A stretch of 64,000 nt of DNA, taken from Escherichia coli. GTDB taxonomy: Bacteria > Pseudomonadota > Gammaproteobacteria > Enterobacterales > Enterobacteriaceae. A program made the position numbers and the translations under genes. The notes under the pieces are model-generated. The model was not told the DNA's origin. It was given only the letters and a program-made list of their open reading frames with translations, and made no database searches. Of this stretch, positions 19,356-57,060 are shown one piece after another (the stretch's first letter is position 1; every line of letters begins with the position of its first letter). The DNA lies in NCBI RefSeq assembly GCF_017348835.2, contig NZ_CP071375.1; one strand, 5' to 3'.

Positions 19356-19429
19356 GAAAGACGCGCATTTGTTATCATCATCCCTGAATTCAGAGATGAA
19401 ATTTTGGCCACTCACGAGTGGCCTTTTTC
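19356..19429 (+). ncRNA. micA: MicA (SraD) small regulatory RNA
   Basis: Matches the MicA sequence as I recall it, ending in a GGCCACUCACGAGUGGCC hairpin plus U-run; lies between luxS and gshA. Confidence 0.85.
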
Positions 19430-22327: not shown

Positions 22328-22404
22328 TCGGAGAATATGGTGCATCCGGGAGGATTCGAACCTCCGACCGCTCGGTTCGTAGCCGAGTACTCTATCCAGC
22401 TGAG
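22328..22404 (-). tRNA. argQ: tRNA-Arg (anticodon ACG)
   Basis: Reverse complement reads GCATCCGTAGCTCAGCTGGATAGAGTACTCGGCTACGAACCGAGCGGTCGGAGGTTCGAATCCTCCCGGATGCACCA. Confidence 0.9.
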
Positions 22405-22477
22405 CTACGGATGCATCGGGAAAATTTATTTTACTGCTGATATTGATATCGCTACTAAAGCCATATCAAGTAAGAGA

Positions 22478-22612
22478 TGGTGCACCAGGGAGGATTACTC
22501 GCCTTGCGGCTCGCCCTTCGGGCCGTTGCTGGCGCAACGTTATCCTCCCTGGTGCCTGCGGTTAATTCCGCTACCTCTTCGATATCTTCATTGCTGAAGA
22601 TTTCGGAGAATA
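22478..22612 (-). repeat. Structured spacer element with a perfect 13-bp inverted repeat and internal hairpins
   Basis: caccagggaggat ... atcctccctggtg enclosing a gcccttcgggc hairpin and gttgc/gcaac; ends tRNA-like (..cctccctggtgcacca on the transcript). Confidence 0.6.
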
Positions 22613-22689
22613 TGGTGCATCCGGGAGGATTCGAACCTCCGACCGCTCGGTTCGTAGCCGAGTACTCTATCCAGCTGAGCTACGGATGC
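22613..22689 (-). tRNA. argZ: tRNA-Arg (ACG)
   Basis: Identical 77-nt copy. Confidence 0.9.
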
Positions 22690-22751
22690 ATCGGGAAATT
22701 AATTTTACTGCTGATATTGATACCGCTACTAAAGCCATATCAAGTAAGAGA

Positions 22752-22828
22752 TGGTGCATCCGGGAGGATTCGAACCTCCGACCGCTCGGTTCGTAGCCGA
22801 GTACTCTATCCAGCTGAGCTACGGATGC
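22752..22828 (-). tRNA. argY: tRNA-Arg (ACG)
   Basis: Identical 77-nt copy. Confidence 0.9.
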
Positions 22829-22892
22829 ATCGGGAAACTTACTTTACTGCATATTTTTTGATACCGCTACTAAAGCCGTATCAAGTAAGAGA

Positions 22893-22969
22893 TGGTGCAT
22901 CCGGGAGGATTCGAACCTCCGACCGCTCGGTTCGTAGCCGAGTACTCTATCCAGCTGAGCTACGGATGC
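22893..22969 (-). tRNA. argV: tRNA-Arg (ACG)
   Basis: Identical 77-nt copy, 3 nt from the tRNA-Ser. Confidence 0.9.
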
Positions 22970-22972
22970 AAA

Positions 22973-23065
22973 TGGCGGTGAGGCGGGGATTCGAACCCCG
23001 GATGCAGCTTTTGACCGCATACTCCCTTAGCAGGGGAGCGCCTTCAGCCTCTCGGCCACCTCACC
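22973..23065 (-). tRNA. serV: tRNA-Ser (GCU), long variable arm
   Basis: Reverse complement reads GGTGAGGTGGCCGAGAGGCTGAAGGCGCTCCCCTGCTAAGGGAGTATGCGGTCAAAAGCTGCATCCGGGGTTCGAATCCCCGCCTCACCGCCA. Confidence 0.9.
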
Positions 23066-36833: not shown

Positions 36834-36849
36834 TGGCACGCAATCTGCA
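36834..36849 (+). promoter_or_regulatory. Sigma-54 (-24/-12) promoter of norVW
   Basis: tggcacgcaatctgca matches TGGCAC-N5-TTGCA, about 50 nt upstream of the norV start. Confidence 0.7.
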
Positions 36850-39593: not shown

Positions 39594-41846
39594 TTATCCG
39601 TTCTGGACTTCACCCGCTAACCAACGCGCCGCAGCAATAACCCCCTGCCCCAGAGACAAACCGCCATCACCCGCCGGTAAACTCTGTGGAAAGAGCAATG
39701 TGAAATCAGCGAGATAATGCGCCAGACGTGCACGCAGCAAACGGTTATGAATAACCCCGCCGCTAAATACCAGCGTAGTGATACCACGCATCGTGGCCTG
39801 CTCACGCATCAACGCGGCAAAACCCTGCGCCAGCGCATCATGAAACGCCCACGCGCGTTGATTAACCGGAGCCTGCCAGTTCAGCCACTGCTGCCAGAAA
39901 GTGGCGAGATCCAGTTGATTGTCCACCCGCGGCATCGTCACCGGATGCGTCACTCCGTCGCACGAATCTGCGAGCGCCTCCAGAGCACAAGCTGCTTCAC
40001 CTTCATAACTTAACGTGGCTGGCGCACAGCCCAGTGCCGCCGCCACAGCATCGAACAAACGCCCACACGATGACGCCAGCGGCGCGTTAATTCCACGCTC
40101 AATGGCCCGCGCCAGCACGCTCCAGTTTTGCTGTTGCACACTTGCCGTTTCAGGGTAATTCTGCCACTCCGGCACAAAGCGCAGGCACTGCGCCAGCAGG
40201 TTACGCCACGGCTGCTTCGCCGCCAAATCGCCACCCGGAAGCGCCACTGCAGGCAAGCCGCCCAGGTGCTCACATTCGCGATAGTTCACCCGCAGGCACT
40301 CGCCGCCCCACAAAGCGCCGTTCTCCCCCATACCGATACCGTCGAGCGTCAAAGCAATGACATCACCGCCATCCAGCGGCCACTGATGCTCTGCCAGACA
40401 CGCCGCTGCATGGGCATGATGATGCAGCACCGTTTGCGTCGGCAGATTCATTTCGCGCGCCCACTGGCTGGAGACATAGCCCGGATGCGCGTCATGCACA
40501 ACGTATTGCGGGGTAAAATCGTAGATGTTTTGCATCAGGCGTAACGCTTCGCGCCACTGCATCTGGATGCCATCGTCACTTAAATCGCCCAGATGCTGGC
40601 TCAACACCGCTTGTTCACCGCGCACCAGGCAGAAGGTATTTTTCAGATCCGCGCCGAGACACAGCACAGGCGGAACATTTTTAAAGCCCGGAGGCAAAGC
40701 CAGCGCATCCGGCACATACCCCCGCGAACGGCGCAGCATTTCGCCGCTTTCGCGCACCACCGAATCATCCATCCGCTGCACGATGTCGCGGTTATGTATC
40801 AAGAATCCGTCGGCAATGCCCTGCAAATCCGCCAGCGCCTGTTCGTTGCTGATAGCCGGTGGTTTACCGCTCAGGTTGCCAGAGGTCATCACCAGCGGGC
40901 ATTGCAGTTCCTGTAACAGCAAATGCTGGAGCGGGTTCGCAGGCAACATTACCCCGACTTCGTTAAGGTCAGGGGCGATATCATCACAAAGCTCAGGTAC
41001 GTATTTTTTATCCACCAGCACAATCGGCGCGGCGAGCGTGGTAAGCAACTGGCGCGCAGCGTCTGGTAAACCGTCAGCCACTGGCAACATGACCGCCAGC
41101 GGTTTCGCCGGGCGATGTTTGCGCGCCCGCAGTGTCGCCACCGCGTTACTGTTACGTGCATCGCAGGCAAGATGAAATCCGCCAATCCCTTTGATGGCGA
41201 CAATGTTGCCCATTTTTAACTGTGCGATAGCTGCCTGTAATGCCGCCTCTTGTTCCGCATGTTCACCATGACTTACCCATTCAAGATGCGGGCCACACTC
41301 CGGGCAGGCCACCGGCTGGGCGTGGAAGCGACGATCGAGCGGGTCGCGGTACTCTTTATCACAGGCTGGACACAGCGGAAACGCCGCCATCACGGTAAAC
41401 GGGCGATCGTAAGGCATGGCGCGAATAATGGTGAAGCGCGGGCCGCAGTGGGTACAGTTGATAAATGGATAACGATAACGCCGTTCGCCTGGGGTATTCA
41501 TTTCGGCAAGGCAAGCAGGGCAAGTGGCAGCATCGGGAACAATTTGCGTATTCATGGTGCCGCCTGTGCTCTGGCGGATGGTGAACTCGGTGGGCGGCTG
41601 TGACCAGATAAACGGCTTACGCTCGACGCTATCAATACGCGCCAGCGGCGGGCAGTGCTGATGCAATTGAACAAGAAACGTTTCCGGGTCTTCCAGCAGC
41701 CGGACTTCTACGCCATCGCCGTCATTACAGACATCGCCGTGAAGATTTAATTGCTGTGCCAGCTGCCAGACAAACGGACGAAAACCGACGCCCTGCACTT
41801 TGCCACGAATACGCAGTTGAACACCGCAAGATGTGTTTTTTGCCAT
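39594..41846 (-). CDS. hypF: [NiFe]-hydrogenase maturation carbamoyltransferase HypF
   Basis: ORF 39594..41918; acylphosphatase, Zn-finger and YrdC/Kae1-like regions; start trimmed to [25 protein letters not shown] (750 aa). Confidence 0.9.
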
Positions 41847-41998: not shown

Positions 41999-42526
41999 TT
42001 AGAACATCAGCGCCGTACGGCGGCGTTTTTCTGCGCTCAGTTGTTCAAGTTTATTACGATCGACACAAATCAGCGCATGAGTCGGGCAAGCCGCCATACA
42101 CGCCGGGCCGTCTTCACGATGGTTGCACAGGTCGCATTTATTGGCTTCGGCTTTGTCAGCCCGTACATTCAGACCCGCGCCGCTGTTGCGGATCACCGGA
42201 CGTACCACCACTTCCATCGCGCCATACGGGCAAGCCACAACGCAGGTTTTACAACCAATGCAACGTTCCTGCATCACATGAACAAACCCTTTATCACGGC
42301 TGATAGCACCATTCGGGTAGACGTTAGCGCACGGTGCATCTTCACACTGACGGCAAACTGTCGCCGTGGAAATGTTCACACCTTTAATGACATGGATACG
42401 CGGTAAAAATGTTTCCGGGGTCAGCGATGCACAGTCCTGATTTTCCTGATGAGAAACCACGCACGCCACTTCACAGGTACGGCAACCAATACATTTACTC
42501 GCGTCAGCAATGATGAAACGGTTCAT
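41999..42526 (-). CDS. hydN: Ferredoxin-like 4Fe-4S electron-transfer protein HydN
   Basis: ORF 41999..42541 with multiple CxxCxxCxxxC motifs; start trimmed to [15 protein letters not shown] (175 aa). Confidence 0.9.
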
Positions 42527-42562
42527 CAAATTCTCCAGCAATGACAGTTAATGCGCCGATAC

Positions 42563-42670
42563 ATTCACAAATCATGCCAGTTTTTAATTCACTGTTATTT
42601 AAGGAAATTAATTTCTATAATGCAGGAAAAAAGATGTCATCGACACTAGTGACGATGACATGTGATGACA
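42563..42670 (-). promoter_or_regulatory. Putative hydN-hypF control region: -24/-12-like element plus FhlA-UAS-like tgtcatc/gtcgatgaca repeats
   Basis: Minus strand reads ctggcatgatttgtgaatg (imperfect sigma-54 element) and catgtcatcgtcactagtgtcgatgacatc upstream. Confidence 0.35.
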
Positions 42671-42674
42671 ATGT

Positions 42675-43685
42675 TTATCGCGAAAGAGCAATGAGTGAGT
42701 CGCGGCAGATCAGTTTTCCGCTGAAGGTTTTCGGCGGTGAGAAATCCCCGCCATCGAGCATAAAAATCAGCCGTCCAATAATTTCCTGAATCATCTCAGT
42801 CACCGGAATTTTTACGCTGGAGAGCGCCGGAACGATATAGGGGGCAATTGCGATATCATCGAATCCGATAACTGACACCTGCTCTGGCACCGCTACGCCG
42901 CGCTCGTGTAACGCTTTCATCGCACCTATCGCCATATCGTCGTTACTGGCAACTAACGCGCTAAATTTAGCCCCACGTTCGAGCAACGTTTCTACCCCTT
43001 CGGCCCCGCTGGCGGGCGTCCATTTACCGTTAGCGATAAGTTTTTCATTGAGCGCAATACCATGCTGCGCCAGCGCGTCTTTATATCCGGCAAGACGTTC
43101 AACGCTGGTGGGGGAATCCATCGAGCCGGTAAGAAAAGCAATCTCCTGATGCCCGGCGTTTATCAACTCTGCCACAGCGTTAAAGCTGGTCTGTTTATGA
43201 TCGCACCAGACGCTATGGCTGCTATTTTTGCGCAGGCGGCGATTAAGCACCATTATCGGCTGACTGTGCGCGTCAATGATGTCATCGATTTCATCCACAC
43301 TTAAAAAACGCGGGTAAATCATAATGGCGTCGCAGCGCAAATCCAGCAGATACTGAATCGCCTGGCGCTCTTCTTCGGCGCTGTGTTTACCATCTGCCAA
43401 TAGCAACTGCCGCCCTTTCTCTTCCGCCATTCGCGCGGCATGAAACAGTAATTCACTAAAATAAATGCCGTGGTAAAGCGTGTTAGTCACTACCAGCCCC
43501 AGCGTCTGGGTACTTTTCGCCGACAGATTGCGCGCCAGCAAGTTTGGACGGTAACCGCTCTCTTCTACCGCCTGAAACACGCGATCTTTAGTCTCCTGGC
43601 TGACGTAGCCATTACCTGAAAGCACGCGGGAAACGGTCGCTTTTGAAACCCCGGCGCGCTTCGCCACTTCCAGCATCGTCGTCAT
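42675..43685 (-). CDS. ascG: LacI/GalR-family repressor AscG
   Basis: ORF 42675..43727; start chosen at MTTMLEVAKRAGVSKATVSRVL (HTH); exact start uncertain. Confidence 0.85.
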   Translation of the reverse strand: MTTMLEVAKRAGVSKATVSRVLSGNGYVSQETKDRVFQAVEESGYRPNLLARNLSAKSTQTLGLVVTNTLYHGIYFSELLFHAARMAEEKGRQLLLADGKHSAEEERQAIQYLLDLRCDAIMIYPRFLSVDEIDDIIDAHSQPIMVLNRRLRKNSSHSVWCDHKQTSFNAVAELINAGHQEIAFLTGSMDSPTSVERLAGYKDALAQHGIALNEKLIANGKWTPASGAEGVETLLERGAKFSALVASNDDMAIGAMKALHERGVAVPEQVSVIGFDDIAIAPYIVPALSSVKIPVTEMIQEIIGRLIFMLDGGDFSPPKTFSGKLICRDSLIALSR

Positions 43686-46948: not shown

Positions 46949-47368
46949 TCAAAGAAACCATTCCGGCTTAACGCCAAATCGGGCTGAAAGTGCCTTAATG
47001 TGGGATATTGTCAGGGATCGTTGTCCAGACAAAATCTGACTAACCAGGGATTTAGAGCCGATTTCGTTCTTCAAATCCGCATAGGTCAGATTATGTTGAT
47101 CAATCAACGTGCGAAGTAACGCCACGCCAACCGGCATTGCCGCAACGGCTTTGTCGAACTCTGCAAACTTTTCGTTGTTGTTTTCATACTCTGCAATGCG
47201 GCTCGCCAGAAAGTCGATAAGTGGATTGGTGTCATCTTCTTCAATCAAATATTCGACCAGTTCCAGTGCTTCACGATAATCATCTTCTGAGTCACTGCCT
47301 CCCAGAAAGGGGACTGCATTGACCAGTTCTCTTGTTGCTTTAACAGCGCGTGCAGCATTAGCAGTCAT
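46949..47368 (-). CDS. HigA-like antitoxin (XRE-type HTH at the C-terminus)
   Basis: 139-aa ORF resembling E. coli HigA (AVPFLGG...ALELVEYL...EFAEF...LLRTLIDQ...GSKSLVSQILSGQRSLT); overlaps the upstream toxin gene by 4 nt. Confidence 0.8.
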   Translation of the reverse strand: MTANAARAVKATRELVNAVPFLGGSDSEDDYREALELVEYLIEEDDTNPLIDFLASRIAEYENNNEKFAEFDKAVAAMPVGVALLRTLIDQHNLTYADLKNEIGSKSLVSQILSGQRSLTISHIKALSARFGVKPEWFL

Positions 47369-47676
47369 TCTTTGTTCTCTCTGTAGTAACGTGTCAGTTT
47401 GTCATACTCTGCGTGATTCGTTATGTGCTTCACAAAGAACCGCTTATTAACAAAGTTTATGTAGGCAATAACCCTAAGATTGTTCCCGCCGACATCCAGA
47501 ACGTACCATTTGTTGCGATATTTAAAATTGTCGAGGTTGGGAAACGCCGTTCGCATTTCTTCTGGCGTAGAAAAATCCGTTTCCTTAATAACCCGATACA
47601 ATGCCTGAAGAGCCAGAGCGTCGTTAGGATATTTACGCGCAGACTCTTCAAATGGCACTTTAGAAATGATGTGCAT
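47365..47676 (-). CDS. HigB-like mRNA interferase toxin (RelE/ParE superfamily)
   Basis: 103-aa ORF resembling E. coli HigB (MHIIS...KYP...FPNLDNFKY..K.YV.DVGGNNLRV...EYD); toxin-first order and 4-nt overlap with the antitoxin. Confidence 0.8.
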   Translation of the reverse strand: MHIISKVPFEESARKYPNDALALQALYRVIKETDFSTPEEMRTAFPNLDNFKYRNKWYVLDVGGNNLRVIAYINFVNKRFFVKHITNHAEYDKLTRYYRENKE

Positions 47677-47680
47677 TTTT

Positions 47681-47784
47681 AAGTTTTAACTTCCTTATAG
47701 TAAGTAAACAGCCACATCTGCGAGTTCTATCCTCATGTGTTCGGAAACTATAGCTCATCAAATCCAAGTTCACAATATGTAAAC
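47681..47784 (-). promoter_or_regulatory. Putative higBA-like promoter/operator region
   Basis: Minus-strand -35 ttgtga, 16-bp spacer, -10 tatagt; inverted repeats gttcaca-ata-tgtaaac (47768-47784) and aagtt-tt-aactt (47681-47692) overlap the -35 and RBS regions. Confidence 0.35.
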
Positions 47785-47837
47785 ACTTGCGCGTGATATA
47801 ATTACCCCCAAAATCCTCATAACCACTCTGCAAAAAG

Positions 47838-48611
47838 TCAGTTCTGATTCACCCCATCAAGCACATCCCCCTTTATCAAGCAACGCTGCGTCAGCGACAG
47901 ATCTTCCGTTTGTGTGTCGCGCCCGGCGATGGGTTTGAGGACGAGTTTACGGTTGGGGGTATAAGTAAAGCGCGTGAGCGCGGGATAGCTTAACTTGCCA
48001 AACCAGCCGTGAACACGCTGCCATTTGGCGTCTTTTACCTGATACAGACTGGTTATCCAGTAACCAGAATTAAACTGCATATCCAGCAATTGCGTGTGAC
48101 CATTGCCTTGTAAATCCAGCAAATCATCTACGCCAGTTTTGCTTGCAGTGTAGAATCCCCAGGGTTCAAAGACACAGGGACGGCCTTCGTGCGTGAACGT
48201 CATGAGGATTAAATGTGCATAGGGCGCCAGACCATTACCGGCACTTGGCAACCAGATAACCAGATCCTGAATGCCGTTACGATCCAGATCGGCGCGATAG
48301 AGCTGCCCTTTGCCCGCCATATTTGCCAGCAACCCCACTGGCACCGTCCAGGATTTACCCGCGCGGTCTTTAGCGGTTAATTGCCAGTAATCCTCTTCAT
48401 TTGGCATCTTCTCAAGCGTCACGCCAGCAACGCCGATTTTTCTAAAATGCCAAGTTTGCTCGGTATAATAAGGCATGGTCAGGAGAGGTTTCAGCGCCCG
48501 CTTTTGCGCATATTCGCTGCCACTCATTGGCAGATATTCGGTAAAGCTGGTGGCCTGTGCAGACTGCACTAAGCTCAATAAAAAAGCGCACATCCCTGTT
48601 CTGATGTTCAA
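47838..48611 (-). CDS. Exported protein of unknown function with Sec-type signal peptide and two DxDxNG-like repeat motifs
   Basis: 257-aa ORF; TTG start at 48611 or ATG at 48593; signal-like CAFLLSLVQSAQA; motifs ADLDRNGIQDLVIW and DLLDLQGNGHTQLLD; Trp-rich. Confidence 0.6.
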   Translation of the reverse strand: MNIRTGMCAFLLSLVQSAQATSFTEYLPMSGSEYAQKRALKPLLTMPYYTEQTWHFRKIGVAGVTLEKMPNEEDYWQLTAKDRAGKSWTVPVGLLANMAGKGQLYRADLDRNGIQDLVIWLPSAGNGLAPYAHLILMTFTHEGRPCVFEPWGFYTASKTGVDDLLDLQGNGHTQLLDMQFNSGYWITSLYQVKDAKWQRVHGWFGKLSYPALTRFTYTPNRKLVLKPIAGRDTQTEDLSLTQRCLIKGDVLDGVNQN

Positions 48612-53477: not shown

Positions 53478-55304
53478 TCAGGCTCCTCGTGAAACAATAA
53501 TCACCACCAGTACCGCCAGTTCAACCAGCGCCATCCGGCGGAACAGCAACGCACTACCTTCGCACTGCCAGCCCGGCACCAGCGACACCGGATTCAGCCA
53601 TTTGCGTAGTTTCAGCACCGGCGCAAACGCCTGTTTCACCGGCATGGCAAAACCGTGAGCAGTAATCACCATTGATTTTTCGTGGTCGTAGCCGCACACC
53701 CAGGCCGCGCCGCGGGAACGCGATGGCAAACGATCGCCTTTGCAAATCGCCATAATGATGAATGGCAGCAGCGGGCAGGCAATCAGCAGCAACGTGATCA
53801 TCGGTTGAGAAACGGTGGTGTTAGCAGGCTCCAGCGGCAGAGGTACAGCAGCAGACAGCATCGGCAGCAGCCACGGCGCAGCAACACCGCCAATTACGCA
53901 GCAAATAGCCAGTGCCACTACGCTTACGCTCATCAGGAGCGGCGCACAGGTGGCGTTTTCGGCTTCTTTGGTACGCGGCGCGCCGAGGAACGTGACGCCA
54001 TAGACTTTCGCCATACACATCACCGCCAGCGCACCGGTAATTGCCAGACCCACAGCGAGCAGCGGCCCCAGCAGACGGGCAACAAACGCGCCACTATTGC
54101 TCAGTTTGAAAAAGGATTGATAGATAACCCATTCCCCGGCAAACCCGTTCAGCGGCGGCAGCGCAGCCATTGCCATCAACCCGACTAACATGGCGATGGA
54201 GATAACCGGCATTTTCTTGCCAATACCACCGAGTTTTTCGATATCGCGATGACCGGTACGGAACCAGACGCTCCCCGCCCCGAGGAACAGTACGCTTTTG
54301 AACAGGCTATGGTTAAGCAGATGGTACAGACCACCGACCAGACCAAGGGCAATCAGCGCCGGTTGTTCGAGCGCGATACCCGTTACGCCAGCGCCCAGCC
54401 CCAGCAGGATGATGCCGATATTTTCCAGGGTGTGGTAAGCCAGCAGGCGCTGGATGTTGTGCTCCATCAGCGCATACAGACCACCGACAAACGCGGTGAT
54501 CATGCCGAGCACCAGCAGCGCGATCCCCCACCACAGCGGTGCATTACCGCCCAGCAGTGACAGGGTTAAAATGCCCAGCAGGCCAATTTTCATGACTACC
54601 GTAGAAAACAACGCGGCAGCTGGCGCAGAGGCGTTCGCATGTGCCTGCGGCACCCAGCCGTGCAGCGGAATAATCCCGGCCAGCAGGCCAAAGCCAATCA
54701 CACCGAGCAGCCAGATATCGGAACCGAGCGGCAGCTGTTGCATACGCATATCCAGCAGGCGCAGATCCAGCGTGCCGTAACGCTGCCACAGCAGCCAGCA
54801 AGCAATCGCCAGCAGCAGAGTGCCAAGACGCCCCAGCGCAAACCACAGTTTGCCCTCTTTACTGTTGCTGGTGAGGAACACCGCACACAGAGCCATGATT
54901 TCTGCCATTACCACGAACATACCGAGGTTGCTGGCGATGACGGCACAGACGGCAGCAGCCATCAACATATTGATCTGCAAACCGTTGCACTTCACCTGCG
55001 CATGGCGATGCCAGTCAATGTTGTAGAGGCTGACAAACAGACCGCACAGACCGAGCGTAATCAGCCAAATCGCGTTAAGCGGAGAGATTTGCACATCGTA
55101 GCTTACCAGCGACAGCGCACCGCTCACGCCAACCGCGCCAGTCAGTACAGTGAAGCCCGCGGCTGCCGTATACAGACTACCAACCGCGCCGCCAATTCCG
55201 GCTATCCAGCCGCTTAGCGCCTTTTGAAAAGAAAAGAGAAATGCCAGAACAGCGGCGGCGACAAACCACGCCACGCCGCTATTGATCAGGGAAATTGCGC
55301 TCAT
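53478..55304 (-). CDS. hycC: Formate hydrogenlyase membrane subunit HycC (antiporter-like)
   Basis: 608-aa polytopic ORF. Confidence 0.95.
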   Translation of the reverse strand: MSAISLINSGVAWFVAAAVLAFLFSFQKALSGWIAGIGGAVGSLYTAAAGFTVLTGAVGVSGALSLVSYDVQISPLNAIWLITLGLCGLFVSLYNIDWHRHAQVKCNGLQINMLMAAAVCAVIASNLGMFVVMAEIMALCAVFLTSNSKEGKLWFALGRLGTLLLAIACWLLWQRYGTLDLRLLDMRMQQLPLGSDIWLLGVIGFGLLAGIIPLHGWVPQAHANASAPAAALFSTVVMKIGLLGILTLSLLGGNAPLWWGIALLVLGMITAFVGGLYALMEHNIQRLLAYHTLENIGIILLGLGAGVTGIALEQPALIALGLVGGLYHLLNHSLFKSVLFLGAGSVWFRTGHRDIEKLGGIGKKMPVISIAMLVGLMAMAALPPLNGFAGEWVIYQSFFKLSNSGAFVARLLGPLLAVGLAITGALAVMCMAKVYGVTFLGAPRTKEAENATCAPLLMSVSVVALAICCVIGGVAAPWLLPMLSAAVPLPLEPANTTVSQPMITLLLIACPLLPFIIMAICKGDRLPSRSRGAAWVCGYDHEKSMVITAHGFAMPVKQAFAPVLKLRKWLNPVSLVPGWQCEGSALLFRRMALVELAVLVVIIVSRGA

Positions 55305-55912
55305 TTAGCCTCTCCACTTTGAGCCTGCTGAAACAAGGTGAGATCGCCAAAGTCCGTGTTAAAGGTCAGCTCACGCTTACGTTTGCTGACGCGGGCGATA
55401 TCGGTGTTATCCACCAGATGCAGGGCTTTAGTCGGGCACATCCGCACGCAGGCCGGACCTTGTTCATCAAAGCTACAAAGGTCACATTTGACGGCGATCG
55501 CGCGAATACCTGGCACCCAGTCAAGCAATGTGCTGACACGCGCCGGAGCAGGCGGTGCCGGTGGCGCTTTCGGGGTATTGGCGTTTGCCGGAATATCCAG
55601 CGGACGGCTGCCGGAAAATTCAATTGCGCCAAACGGGCAGGCGATGCCGCACAGTTTGCAGCTTACGCACAGGCTTTCATTCAACTGCACGGCCCCATCA
55701 ACGCGGGTGATGGCGTTAACTGGGCAGACCACCGCGCAGGGTGCATCTTCACAGTGGTGACAGAGCTGCGGCGCAGATTCTTTTTCATTTAGCATCACTC
55801 TCAGGCGCGGCATTGATTGCAGGCCGTGCTGGCGATGCGTCTCTGAACAGGCGGCCTCACAAGTGTGGCAGCCGATACAGAGCGTGGAGTCAGCAATTAC
55901 AAAACGATTCAC
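55301..55912 (-). CDS. hycB: Formate hydrogenlyase Fe-S subunit HycB
   Basis: 203-aa ORF with four Cys clusters. Confidence 0.95.
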   Translation of the reverse strand: MNRFVIADSTLCIGCHTCEAACSETHRQHGLQSMPRLRVMLNEKESAPQLCHHCEDAPCAVVCPVNAITRVDGAVQLNESLCVSCKLCGIACPFGAIEFSGSRPLDIPANANTPKAPPAPPAPARVSTLLDWVPGIRAIAVKCDLCSFDEQGPACVRMCPTKALHLVDNTDIARVSKRKRELTFNTDFGDLTLFQQAQSGEAK

Positions 55913-55930
55913 CAGGCATTCCTCAGGTGA

Positions 55931-55988
55931 TTGTCATTTTTGACGAAAACATGCCGATGAAATGTCATTTTCGACACTCATCGACACG
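55931..55988. promoter_or_regulatory. FhlA-UAS-like repeats in the hycB-hycA intergenic region
   Basis: tgtcatttttgacg ... atgtcattttcgacactcatcgacac shares the tgtcatttcgaca-type motif with the hycA-hypA region. Confidence 0.4.
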
Positions 55989-56036
55989 CCCATCCCCAAA
56001 CAGGCGTAACGCCTGCAAAACGGGCAAAGCCTCAGC

Positions 56037-56498
56037 TCATGCTGCCGGGCTTTGTCCCTTTACCAGTTGGCTTAAATTCACCGGCACATTGTTTTCAATG
56101 GCGGTGTATAAGCTGTCGTAAACGCCAGCGATTTTTTCGAGATAGTGTTCCAGAACCTGTTCGCGATCGCGGATGTTGACCTTGCCATCAATCATGCCGT
56201 CAATGCTCAGTTGCGCCTGTGCAATCCGCTGTTTGTCTTCGCCATCTTTTGTTTCGACGTAATACTCGATGATGTGGCTGTTAAAGCCATCCGCCAGGGT
56301 GACGTAAATACGAAAATGTTCAAAAAGGACGAAACAGAGTTCTTTGTCCGGCGCGCAGCTCATGGCGTGATGCAGGCGCGCTTTCGATAACGTGATCCCC
56401 TGAACCAGCGAATTACAGTAGATGTGCCACTGGTCCTGTAGGCGACGATGCCGCTGTGCGATGTAATCGGCTTTCTCGCTTATTTCCCAAATAGTCAT
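56037..56498 (-). CDS. hycA: Formate hydrogenlyase regulatory protein HycA
   Basis: 153-aa ORF. Confidence 0.9.
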   Translation of the reverse strand: MTIWEISEKADYIAQRHRRLQDQWHIYCNSLVQGITLSKARLHHAMSCAPDKELCFVLFEHFRIYVTLADGFNSHIIEYYVETKDGEDKQRIAQAQLSIDGMIDGKVNIRDREQVLEHYLEKIAGVYDSLYTAIENNVPVNLSQLVKGQSPAA

Positions 56499-56533
56499 TG
56501 TCAGGTTACCCGTTTAACAGAGATGCCAGCTTT

Positions 56534-56549
56534 AAGCATTTTCTGTGCC
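56534..56549 (-). promoter_or_regulatory. Sigma-54 (-24/-12) promoter of the hyc operon
   Basis: Minus strand tggcacagaaaatgct, about 40 nt upstream of the hycA start. Confidence 0.55.
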
Positions 56550-56600
56550 AACTTTTAATTCATTGTTATTAAAACGATTTTTAAGCTAAAGATGAATTTC

Positions 56601-56637
56601 GTCGCCGTGTCGACGTGTCATTTCGACATCATCGACA
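56601..56637. promoter_or_regulatory. FhlA upstream activating sequence between hycA and hypA
   Basis: gtcgccgtgtcgacgtgtcatttcgacatcatcgaca, repeated tcgaca/gtcgac motifs. Confidence 0.55.
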
Positions 56638-56663
56638 TTATTCACCGCAGGGATAATCAACAC

Positions 56664-56679
56664 TGGCACAATTATTGCT
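56664..56679 (+). promoter_or_regulatory. Sigma-54 (-24/-12) promoter of the hyp operon
   Basis: tggcacaattattgct, about 30 nt upstream of hypA. Confidence 0.6.
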
Positions 56680-56709
56680 TGTAGCTGGCAATAGTTAATG
56701 GGAGGCGAT

Positions 56710-57060
56710 ATGCACGAAATAACCCTCTGCCAACGGGCACTGGAATTGATCGAACAGCAGGCCGCAAAACACGGCGCAAAACGCGTAACTGGGGTCTGGC
56801 TCAAAATTGGCGCATTTTCTTGTGTCGAAACCAGCTCTCTTGCCTTTTGTTTTGATCTGGTTTGCCGCGGCAGCGTGGCGGAAGGTTGTAAACTGCACCT
56901 CGAAGAACAAGAGGCCGAATGCTGGTGTGAAACATGCCAACAGTATGTGACGCTACTGACCCAGCGCGTCCGCCGCTGTCCACAGTGTCATGGTGACATG
57001 CTACAGATTGTGGCAGACGACGGTTTACAGATTCGGCGGATAGAAATAGACCAGGAGTGA
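56710..57060 (+). CDS. hypA: Hydrogenase nickel-insertion protein HypA
   Basis: ORF 56698..57060; start trimmed to MHEITLCQRALELIEQ (116 aa); CxxC...CxxC zinc site. Confidence 0.9.
   Translation: MHEITLCQRALELIEQQAAKHGAKRVTGVWLKIGAFSCVETSSLAFCFDLVCRGSVAEGCKLHLEEQEAECWCETCQQYVTLLTQRVRRCPQCHGDMLQIVADDGLQIRRIEIDQE

Follow-up and report, generated by a model that had tools for sequence, protein, structure and literature searches.

Three clusters of short repeats in the formate regulon of Escherichia coli are very probably upstream activating sequences (enhancers) for the formate-sensing sigma-54 activator FhlA, their putative binding protein, which is encoded in the same window (the whole stretch of chromosome that was analysed, 64,000 nucleotides). 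The clusters lie between hycA and hypA, in the hycB-hycA spacer and upstream of hydN. A first-pass annotation had claimed that TGTCAT, TCGACA and GTCGAC units recur at these control regions; this observation is confirmed, with the right coordinates, and is highly non-random. What the clusters represent is the already known control of the formate regulon by FhlA, sigma-54 and IHF, of which hydN-hypF is a recognised member; the reading is correct but ordinary.

The locus, its promoters and its activator

The window carries, in the order hypF-hydN-ascGFB-hycI..A-hypA..E-fhlA, the following genes of the RefSeq annotation:

39594-41846, minus strand: hypF
41999-42526, minus strand: hydN, with its ATG at 42526
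42675-43685, minus strand: ascG, the gene ending at 42675
plus strand: ascF and ascB
between the asc and hyc genes in the annotation list: a HigB/HTH toxin-antitoxin pair and one hypothetical gene
minus strand: hycI through hycB, with hycB at 55301-55912
56037-56498, minus strand: hycA, anti-activator of FhlA (Pfam HycA_repressor, E = 2.8e-90), sitting between both hyc/hyp clusters
56710-57060, plus strand: hypA, with its ATG at 56710 and hypB-E next
60401-62479, plus strand: fhlA, the presumed activator of the clusters

The gene names used in the first-pass annotation agree with RefSeq and Pfam. FhlA, the cognate activator of the formate regulon units, has the Pfam domains GAF (202-344), Sigma54_activat (381-548) and HTH_8 (645-684). 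By megablast, segments 55800-56800 and 42400-42800 are present in essentially every complete E. coli genome (100% identity in strain PE164). K-12 MG1655 equals the window at every enhancer unit, i.e., at those of the hycA-hypA region, of the hycB-hycA spacer (site B included) and of hydN, as well as at the -24/-12 bases, with few SNPs, in spacers only; the K-12 literature therefore applies directly.

For comparison, a HycI scan with one genome per species gave 80 Enterobacteriaceae loci, each taken together with 10 kb of flanking sequence. The positions of hypA, hycA, hycB and hydN, as given by tblastn, served to cut out the three regions, each usable in 64-67 of the 80 loci. Each cluster stands out in these loci as a sharply conserved island within otherwise divergent spacers, and the alignments show the signature of purifying selection on each cluster across species carrying the regulon.

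A scan with the pattern TGGCAY-N5-TTGCW, together with a search for IHF-like sites, located these elements:

56664-56679, plus strand: hyp sigma-54 promoter TGGCACAATTATTGCT, no mismatch, the sole perfect match in the window, kept in all species
56550-56535, minus strand: hyc sigma-54 promoter TGGCACAGAAAATGCT, one mismatch, -24 GG at 56549-56548 and -12 GC at 56537-56536
42579-42564, minus strand: hydN sigma-54 promoter TGGCATGATTTGTGAA, two mismatches, with a non-canonical -12 (GA for GC)
56556-56568, minus strand: IHF-like site TAACAATGAATTA, between the hyc -24 and the enhancer, one mismatch to WATCAANNNNTTR
42585-42597, minus strand: IHF-like site TAACAGTGAATTA, two mismatches, starting 6 nt upstream of the hydN -24

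The mismatch counts bear out the earlier ranking of the promoter elements as good for hyp and hyc and imperfect for hydN. Predicted transcription starts are at about 56690 for hyp, 20 nt before the hypA ATG, at about 56524 for hyc, 26 nt before the hycA ATG, and at about 42553 for hydN, 27 nt before the hydN ATG. By sequence alone, the hydN element does not reach significance (70 matches with two mismatches in the window scan vs 80 expected). In hydN orthologues its -24 reads TGGCA, TGGCG or TGGAA and its -12 reads TGCA or TGAA/TGTA; the hyc -24/-12 bases are invariant in 27 species.

For sigma-54 occupancy and for dependence on FhlA and formate we rely on the literature. Sigma-54 ChIP-seq in E. 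coli (Bonocora et al. 2015, PMC4591121) reported sites OS26 at hydN, OS27 at hycA and OS28 at hypA. The hydN element is letter-for-letter OS26 (CTGGCATGATTTGTGAA), the hyp element is exactly OS28, the hyc element is one spacer SNP away from OS27, and our distances to the start codons equal the published ones (PMC4591121). Genomic SELEX, done in vitro, picked out the hydN and hycA/hypA spacers as well. All three formate-regulon promoters point toward the regulated gene, are supported by sigma-54 ChIP-seq and are conserved in orthologues.

The predicted IHF-like sites have an identical geometry at hyc and hydN, 6 nt upstream of TGGCA. At hyc the corresponding TTAA..TTGAT block is conserved, being a perfect IHF consensus in Klebsiella, and PMC2636881 states that hyc depends on IHF.

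For Salmonella, published lists of sigma-54 operons under FhlA include hydN-hypF, hyc and hyp (PMC3844500; PMC4987338). Expression ratios between rpoN+ and rpoN-null cells, obtained with a constitutive promiscuous activator, were 13, 26 and 5.6, respectively, and ChIP-chip together with microarray data gave hydN, hycA and hypA as sigma-54 sites and FhlA targets (PMC3844500). The published regulon tables give fdhF alongside these three operons. A 2025 review states that formate-FhlA enhances hydN-hypF expression (PMC11841067), and the hydN-hypF promoter and its FhlA dependence go back to Maier, Binder and Bock 1996 (cited in PMC3844500 and PMC11841067); PMC2636881, PMC13298927 and PMC3349551 make general statements only. 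Our literature searches by phrase and by sequence string gave no relevant match. FhlA/sigma-54 control, as claimed earlier, is supported by the ChIP-seq site identity, the regulon literature and conservation. The proposed co-regulation of hydN-hypF is likewise supported by the conserved dyad described below, by the OS26 promoter and by published work that already includes this operon in the regulon.

It is very unlikely that the repeats are bound by another regulator, e.g., the FhlA paralogue HyfR or ModE, instead of FhlA. HyfR is listed beside FhlA in one activator family, OrthoMCL puts fhlA and hyfR in one group, and ModE has been called a secondary activator of hyc (PMC2636881). However, the published regulon tables give all these operons to FhlA, and the motif recurs at fdhF, a classical FhlA target. 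Cross-recognition by HyfR would add to FhlA binding rather than replace it. ModE boxes are of the TATAT type, unlike these units.

We propose that FhlA would bind arrays of YGWCA pentamers (TGTCA, CGACA, CGTCA) and that formate-bound FhlA would oligomerise there. An IHF-induced bend may help it contact the closed complex of sigma-54 RNA polymerase, whereupon ATP hydrolysis would open the promoter. The hycA-hypA cluster would act in this way on the hyc promoter, the hydN dyad on the hydN-hypF promoter and, most likely, the hycB-hycA cluster on the hyp promoter from about 700 bp away, with HycA presumably antagonising FhlA.

Geometry and conservation of the three clusters

The clusters and their parts are as follows:

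56596-56638: hycA-hypA enhancer cluster ATTTCGTCGCCGTGTCGACGTGTCATTTCGACATCATCGACAT, with its core TGTCATTTCGACA at 56616-56628, about -98 from the predicted hyc start
42634-42670: hydN region, ATGTCATCGACACTAGTGACGATGACATGTGATGACA
42634-42661: hydN enhancer dyad ATGTCATCGACAC-TA-GTGACGATGACAT, four YGWCA pentamers, two per arm, with its centre about -94 from the predicted hydN start
42661-42670: third hydN unit TGTGATGACA, in other genera (A/G)ATGACGAC or ATGTCGAC
55932-55987: hycB-hycA spacer sequence, TGTCATTTTTGACGAAAACATGCCGATGAAATGTCATTTTCGACACTCATCGACAC
55933-55948: site A of this spacer, GTCATTTTTGACGAAA, a GTCA-N4-TGAC inverted repeat plus GAAA, starting 21 nt from the hycB start codon
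55963-55987, plus strand: site B, TGTCATTTTCGACAC-TCA-TCGACAC, three direct YGWCA pentamers

Both the hyc core and the hydN dyad fall within the enhancer range of about 80-120 bp upstream of the start. The hycB-hycA cluster, at about -700 to -760 from the hyp start, is the exception. The first-pass annotation had paired each cluster with a -24/-12 element; this stands for the hycA-hypA and hydN clusters, but the hycB-hycA cluster has no -24/-12 element beside it. The nearest local promoter candidate, inside hycA (CGGCACATTGTTTTCA, 56082-56097, plus strand), was rejected, its GGCAC not being conserved in orthologues.

Conservation in the hycA-hypA spacer falls into four islands: the hyc -24/-12, the A/T-rich TTAA..TTGAT block, the enhancer and the hyp -24/-12. 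In the orthologue alignment, the enhancer is conserved as GAC(A/G)TGTCATTTCG(T/A)CA..TCGACAT. Some species have expanded spacers (239-836 bp), in all of which the core is found at position 118/119, counted from the hycA ATG, and the hyc -24/-12, where the pattern found one, lies at position 37 from the hycA start. The position of the core upstream of the hyc promoter is near-constant, with two classes offset by 10 bp, while the gap between core and hyp promoter spans 46 to 672 bp across genera. Since the core is fixed relative to hycA while the hyp distance varies, the cluster is positionally tied to the hyc promoter, not to hyp, and by this coupling it would serve hyc. The hyc/hyp spacer of Klebsiella carries a short-spacer unit of the hydN type, TGTCATCGACA, which argues that versions with one T and with three to four Ts between the pentamers are equivalent sites.

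Upstream of hydN, a 26-bp dyad, TGTCATCG(T/A)CAC-NN-GTGACGATGACA, is present in 67 of 67 sequences (the window and 66 orthologues); it has a one-T spacer in place of TTT. Paired positions are 89.7% symmetric, above almost all shuffles, and four positions show double changes that preserve symmetry, as in Buttiauxella, where TGTCA...TGACA has become TGACA...TGTCA with the dyad symmetry kept. The centre of the dyad lies either 59-62 or 70-72 bp from the -24 GG, two classes that differ by one helical turn.

Such a dyad next to ascG could be read as the intrinsic terminator of that gene. Folding of 42680-42615 (minus strand) gives a stem of 11 pairs (9 + 2 around a single U-U mismatch) at -14.4 kcal/mol (z = -2.4), and the hairpin, which begins 13 nt after the ascG stop codon, is followed on the minus strand by CUUUUUU. 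Yet dyad, promoter and IHF-like block are kept in E. coli strains and Escherichia species without ascG beside hydN; in E. coli strains lacking ascG, similarity stops about 10 nt past the third hydN unit, and in one such strain the dyad is kept as a perfect palindrome. It is also kept in genera without the T run, its arms are conserved in sequence beyond mere pairing, and they have pentamers in common with the hyc/hyp sites. A consensus terminator scan was negative at the dyad, the hairpin and U run appearing only in the direct fold, and in K-12 the T run is interrupted (AAAAAC). We therefore regard a function as terminator only as highly improbable. The enhancer dyad may nevertheless have a dual role in asc-carrying strains, also terminating ascG.

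In the hycB-hycA spacer, site A is exact in 54 of 66 sequences (the window and 65 orthologues), with at most two mismatches in the others, and its offset from the hycB start is constant in 47 sequences. Its form, GTCA-N4-TGACGA, is that of the fdhF upstream site GTCAAAACTGACGA. Site B is conserved across genera as TGTCA(T)TTTCGACAC-N3-TCGACAC. This cluster would be the enhancer of the hyp promoter reportedly described by Lutz 1990, Schlensog 1994 and Hopper 1994, acting from about 700 bp; long-range action on hyp is its most likely role.

The hycA-hycB spacer is transcribed, and one could suppose that its motifs work in the hyc transcript, through RNA structure or control of hycB translation, and not as DNA sites. 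In E. coli the spacer RNA has a predicted fold of -55.6 kcal/mol (z = -4.6), and site A sits immediately 5' of the hycB Shine-Dalgarno at a fixed offset. Against this, RNAalifold over 25 species yields only -6.97 kcal/mol, with no compensatory pair and a covariation term of +0.12, and Rfam has no family at any of the three motif places; we rejected a conserved RNA structure here, the strong single fold having neither covariation nor Rfam support. It is the primary sequence that is conserved, and the units match those at the hyc and hydN enhancers, which are not transcribed. The chance that the motifs act as RNA is very slim, and we retain the DNA-level reading.

Repeat statistics and the definition of an FhlA site

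The repeat units start at these positions:

TGTCAT: 42635, 55932, 55963 and 56616
ATGACA: 42655 and 42665
TCGACA: 42640, 55971, 55981, 56623 and 56632
TGTCGA: 56608
GTCGAC: 56609

The three hexamers named in the first-pass annotation have 98 matches on both strands of the 64 kb, and the richest 60-bp windows are precisely the three claimed places (5, 4 and 4 matches; at most 2 elsewhere). Because the hexamers had been picked after viewing the regions, we added a strict composite pattern, TGTCA-T(1-4)-CG[AT]CA. Its four matches (42635 and 55963 and 56616 on the plus strand, 42650 on the minus strand) all lie within the three places, with none elsewhere in the 64 kb, vs a mean of 0.07 and a maximum of 1 in 300 dinucleotide-preserving shuffles; a version with unrestricted spacer gave 6 matches vs 1.17 expected. 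By density of YGWCA pentamers, a less specific measure than the hexamer or composite tests, the hydN region ranks first (8) and the hycB-hycA spacer second (7), and the hycA-hypA region (5) is tied with a site inside hypA. Chance similarity among A/T-rich spacers, which the shortness of the units and their selection after the fact might suggest, is refuted by the shuffles, by the confinement of the strict matches to the three places and by footprints independently conserved across genera, and its probability is negligible.

The sites themselves are heterogeneous. Their T-spacers range from 1 to 4 nt, pentamers occur as direct and as inverted repeats, and a single matrix does not describe all of them. 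FhlA upstream activating sequences of hyc, hyp and fdhF were reportedly described by Lutz 1990, Schlensog 1994, Hopper 1994 and Leonhartsberger 2000. The FhlA consensus CATTTCGTACGAAATG, from Leonhartsberger 2000, is quoted in a review table (PMC4987338). Scanned with it, site A reaches 11/16, a score found at 17 positions in all, the hyc core, the hydN dyad and the other sites reach at most 10, and the best matches (13/16 and 12/16) fall at unrelated positions. The published half-site CATTTCGT falls inside the orthologous core TGTCATTTCGTCA, and CATTTCG(T) is present in the hyc core.

As a site test, the consensus scan was rejected, as it fails to single out even well-established sites; the full 16-mer palindrome is a poor descriptor and scanning tool. 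The first-pass annotation had proposed that a failed motif scan at hydN would count against FhlA control there. Run with this consensus, the scan gives the dyad at most 10/16, but a consensus that misses established sites makes such a failure say little, and the proposed ground for refutation is unsound.

We tentatively hypothesize, from the pentamer reading of the sites, that FhlA reads flexibly spaced YGWCA arrays and not the published 16-bp palindrome. The hydN enhancer would then be the compact form of the looser hyc/hyp arrays, with four pentamers in full dyad symmetry (TGTCA-T-CGWCA, mirrored), and in asc-carrying E. coli the dyad with its T run might also terminate ascG, insulating hydN from read-through. 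We consider this possible though doubtful as a whole. If true, the orthologous footprints could provide a revised site model in place of the consensus that reviews now quote, which is unsuitable for genome scanning.

Significance and likeness to known systems

Working from sequence alone, the analysis arrives at the cis-architecture that textbooks give for the E. coli formate regulon, and this is not new biology. What is mildly new is descriptive only: the sites are defined across genera, the hydN enhancer is described as a dyad, the intergenic enhancer is seen to be coupled in position to hyc, and the quoted consensus proves weak. The hydN dyad was possibly drawn already in the 1996 or 2000 papers. 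For each FhlA site, the footprint across genera provides exact and conserved coordinates, which may be of some use for formate biosensors and regulon prediction.

The closest known system is the E. coli formate regulon itself, in the FhlA upstream activating sequences of hyc, hyp and fdhF, with the same organism, loci and sequences and an IHF-like site between enhancer and promoter. Nothing substantive differs from the published E. coli FhlA sites, the strain of the window having spacer SNPs only. The upstream region of fdhF (K-12, outside the window) carries GTCAAAACTGACGACA, TTTCGTCAC and TTTTTCGTCAG and also TTTCGTCA units, and the form shared by fdhF and site A recurs at the hydN dyad centre of other species. 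The upstream regions of hyc, hydN and fdhF follow the same plan, i.e., -24/-12, IHF-like site and enhancer, and a three-way alignment of them has TAATA(A/T)CA..GAAT..TAAAA..TGGCA in common.

More distant likenesses are found in the enhancers of GlrR (TGTC-N10-GACA) and NorR (GT-N7-AC), described in PMC4987338; the norV promoter also lies in the window (36834-36849). Like the FhlA sites, these enhancers consist of short half-sites, in dyad or repeated, that lie some 80-120 bp upstream of a -24/-12 promoter, and IHF often sits in between. The FhlA units differ from them in half-site spacing and flanks (TGTC-N3..6-GACA), in the T-run and CG inside, and in being arrayed in groups of 3-5.

The hydN upstream region

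The conserved 26-bp dyad upstream of hydN, read as a site for the formate-sensing activator FhlA, lies next to ascG (42675-43685, minus strand) and may have a second role. When 42615-42680 is folded as minus-strand RNA, the dyad forms a hairpin of -14.4 kcal/mol (z = -2.4), which begins 13 nt 3′ of the ascG stop codon (42675-42677) and is directly followed by CUUUUUU. The hairpin may serve as an intrinsic terminator of ascG that overlaps the FhlA site. The T run that follows the dyad is broken up in K-12.

In a nucleotide similarity search, 727 of the 5426 E. coli records lack the asc genes beside hydN, and their match to the window therefore stops right of ~42680. One such strain is AVS0750 (L087, 2680-2760), where similarity breaks off ~10 nt past the last hydN enhancer unit and the dyad, with a GTGTCG arm, is perfectly palindromic.

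The hydN promoter in this region was compared with the Enterobacteriaceae orthologue loci L004-L083:

42564-42579, hydN sigma-54 promoter

Escherichia, Salmonella, Citrobacter and Buttiauxella carry a non-canonical -12 element here, TGAA or TGTA. In Klebsiella, Kluyvera and Pseudocitrobacter the -12 element is the canonical TGCA, and several loci of this second group have a weaker -24 element instead, TGGAA or TGGCG.

The hycA-hycB spacer and gene order around hyc

55988-56025, hairpin GCCC..CAGGCGTAACGCCTG..GGGC, immediately 3′ of the hycA stop
46949-48611, HigB-family toxin paired with an HTH antitoxin, plus one hypothetical gene, between ascB and hycI

The hairpin occurs only in the Escherichia/Citrobacter/Salmonella group, whose spacer measures 127-149 nt, against ~85-100 nt in other genera. 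For the full spacer RNA of E. coli the predicted fold has an energy of -55.6 kcal/mol (z = -4.6), and no covariation support for this fold was found. In a related strain the ascB-hycI interval holds another set of small genes; therefore, 46949-48611 is a strain-variable islet within the hydN-hyc interval.

Gene order at three loci from Phytobacter and Kosakonia sp. (L049, L070 and L074) is unlike that of the others: hypA lies directly upstream of a hycI homologue, and neither hycA nor hycB was found within 10 kb. These are possibly hyf-type loci.

RNA genes and other sigma-54-like elements

Rfam matches in the window, which have no relation to the FhlA-motif finding, are as follows:

12681-12758, plus strand, naRNA4 (CssrE)
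19356-19427, plus strand, MicA sRNA
22341-23065, minus strand, cluster of five tRNA genes

Further sigma-54-like elements, with mismatches counted against TGGCAY-N5-TTGCW, are located at:

3368-3383, plus strand, TGGCATAAAAAATGCT, one mismatch, stpA-alaE intergenic region, oriented to alaE
9235-9250, minus strand, TGGCATGAATATTGAT, within proV
36834-36849, plus strand, TGGCACGCAATCTGCA, known norV sigma-54 promoter

In the sigma-54 ChIP-seq study (Bonocora et al. 2015, PMC4591121) the norV promoter is site OS25, and the main text makes no mention of the element facing alaE. An intragenic sigma-54 site has been reported in Salmonella proV, and TGGCATGAATATTGAT is its counterpart here.
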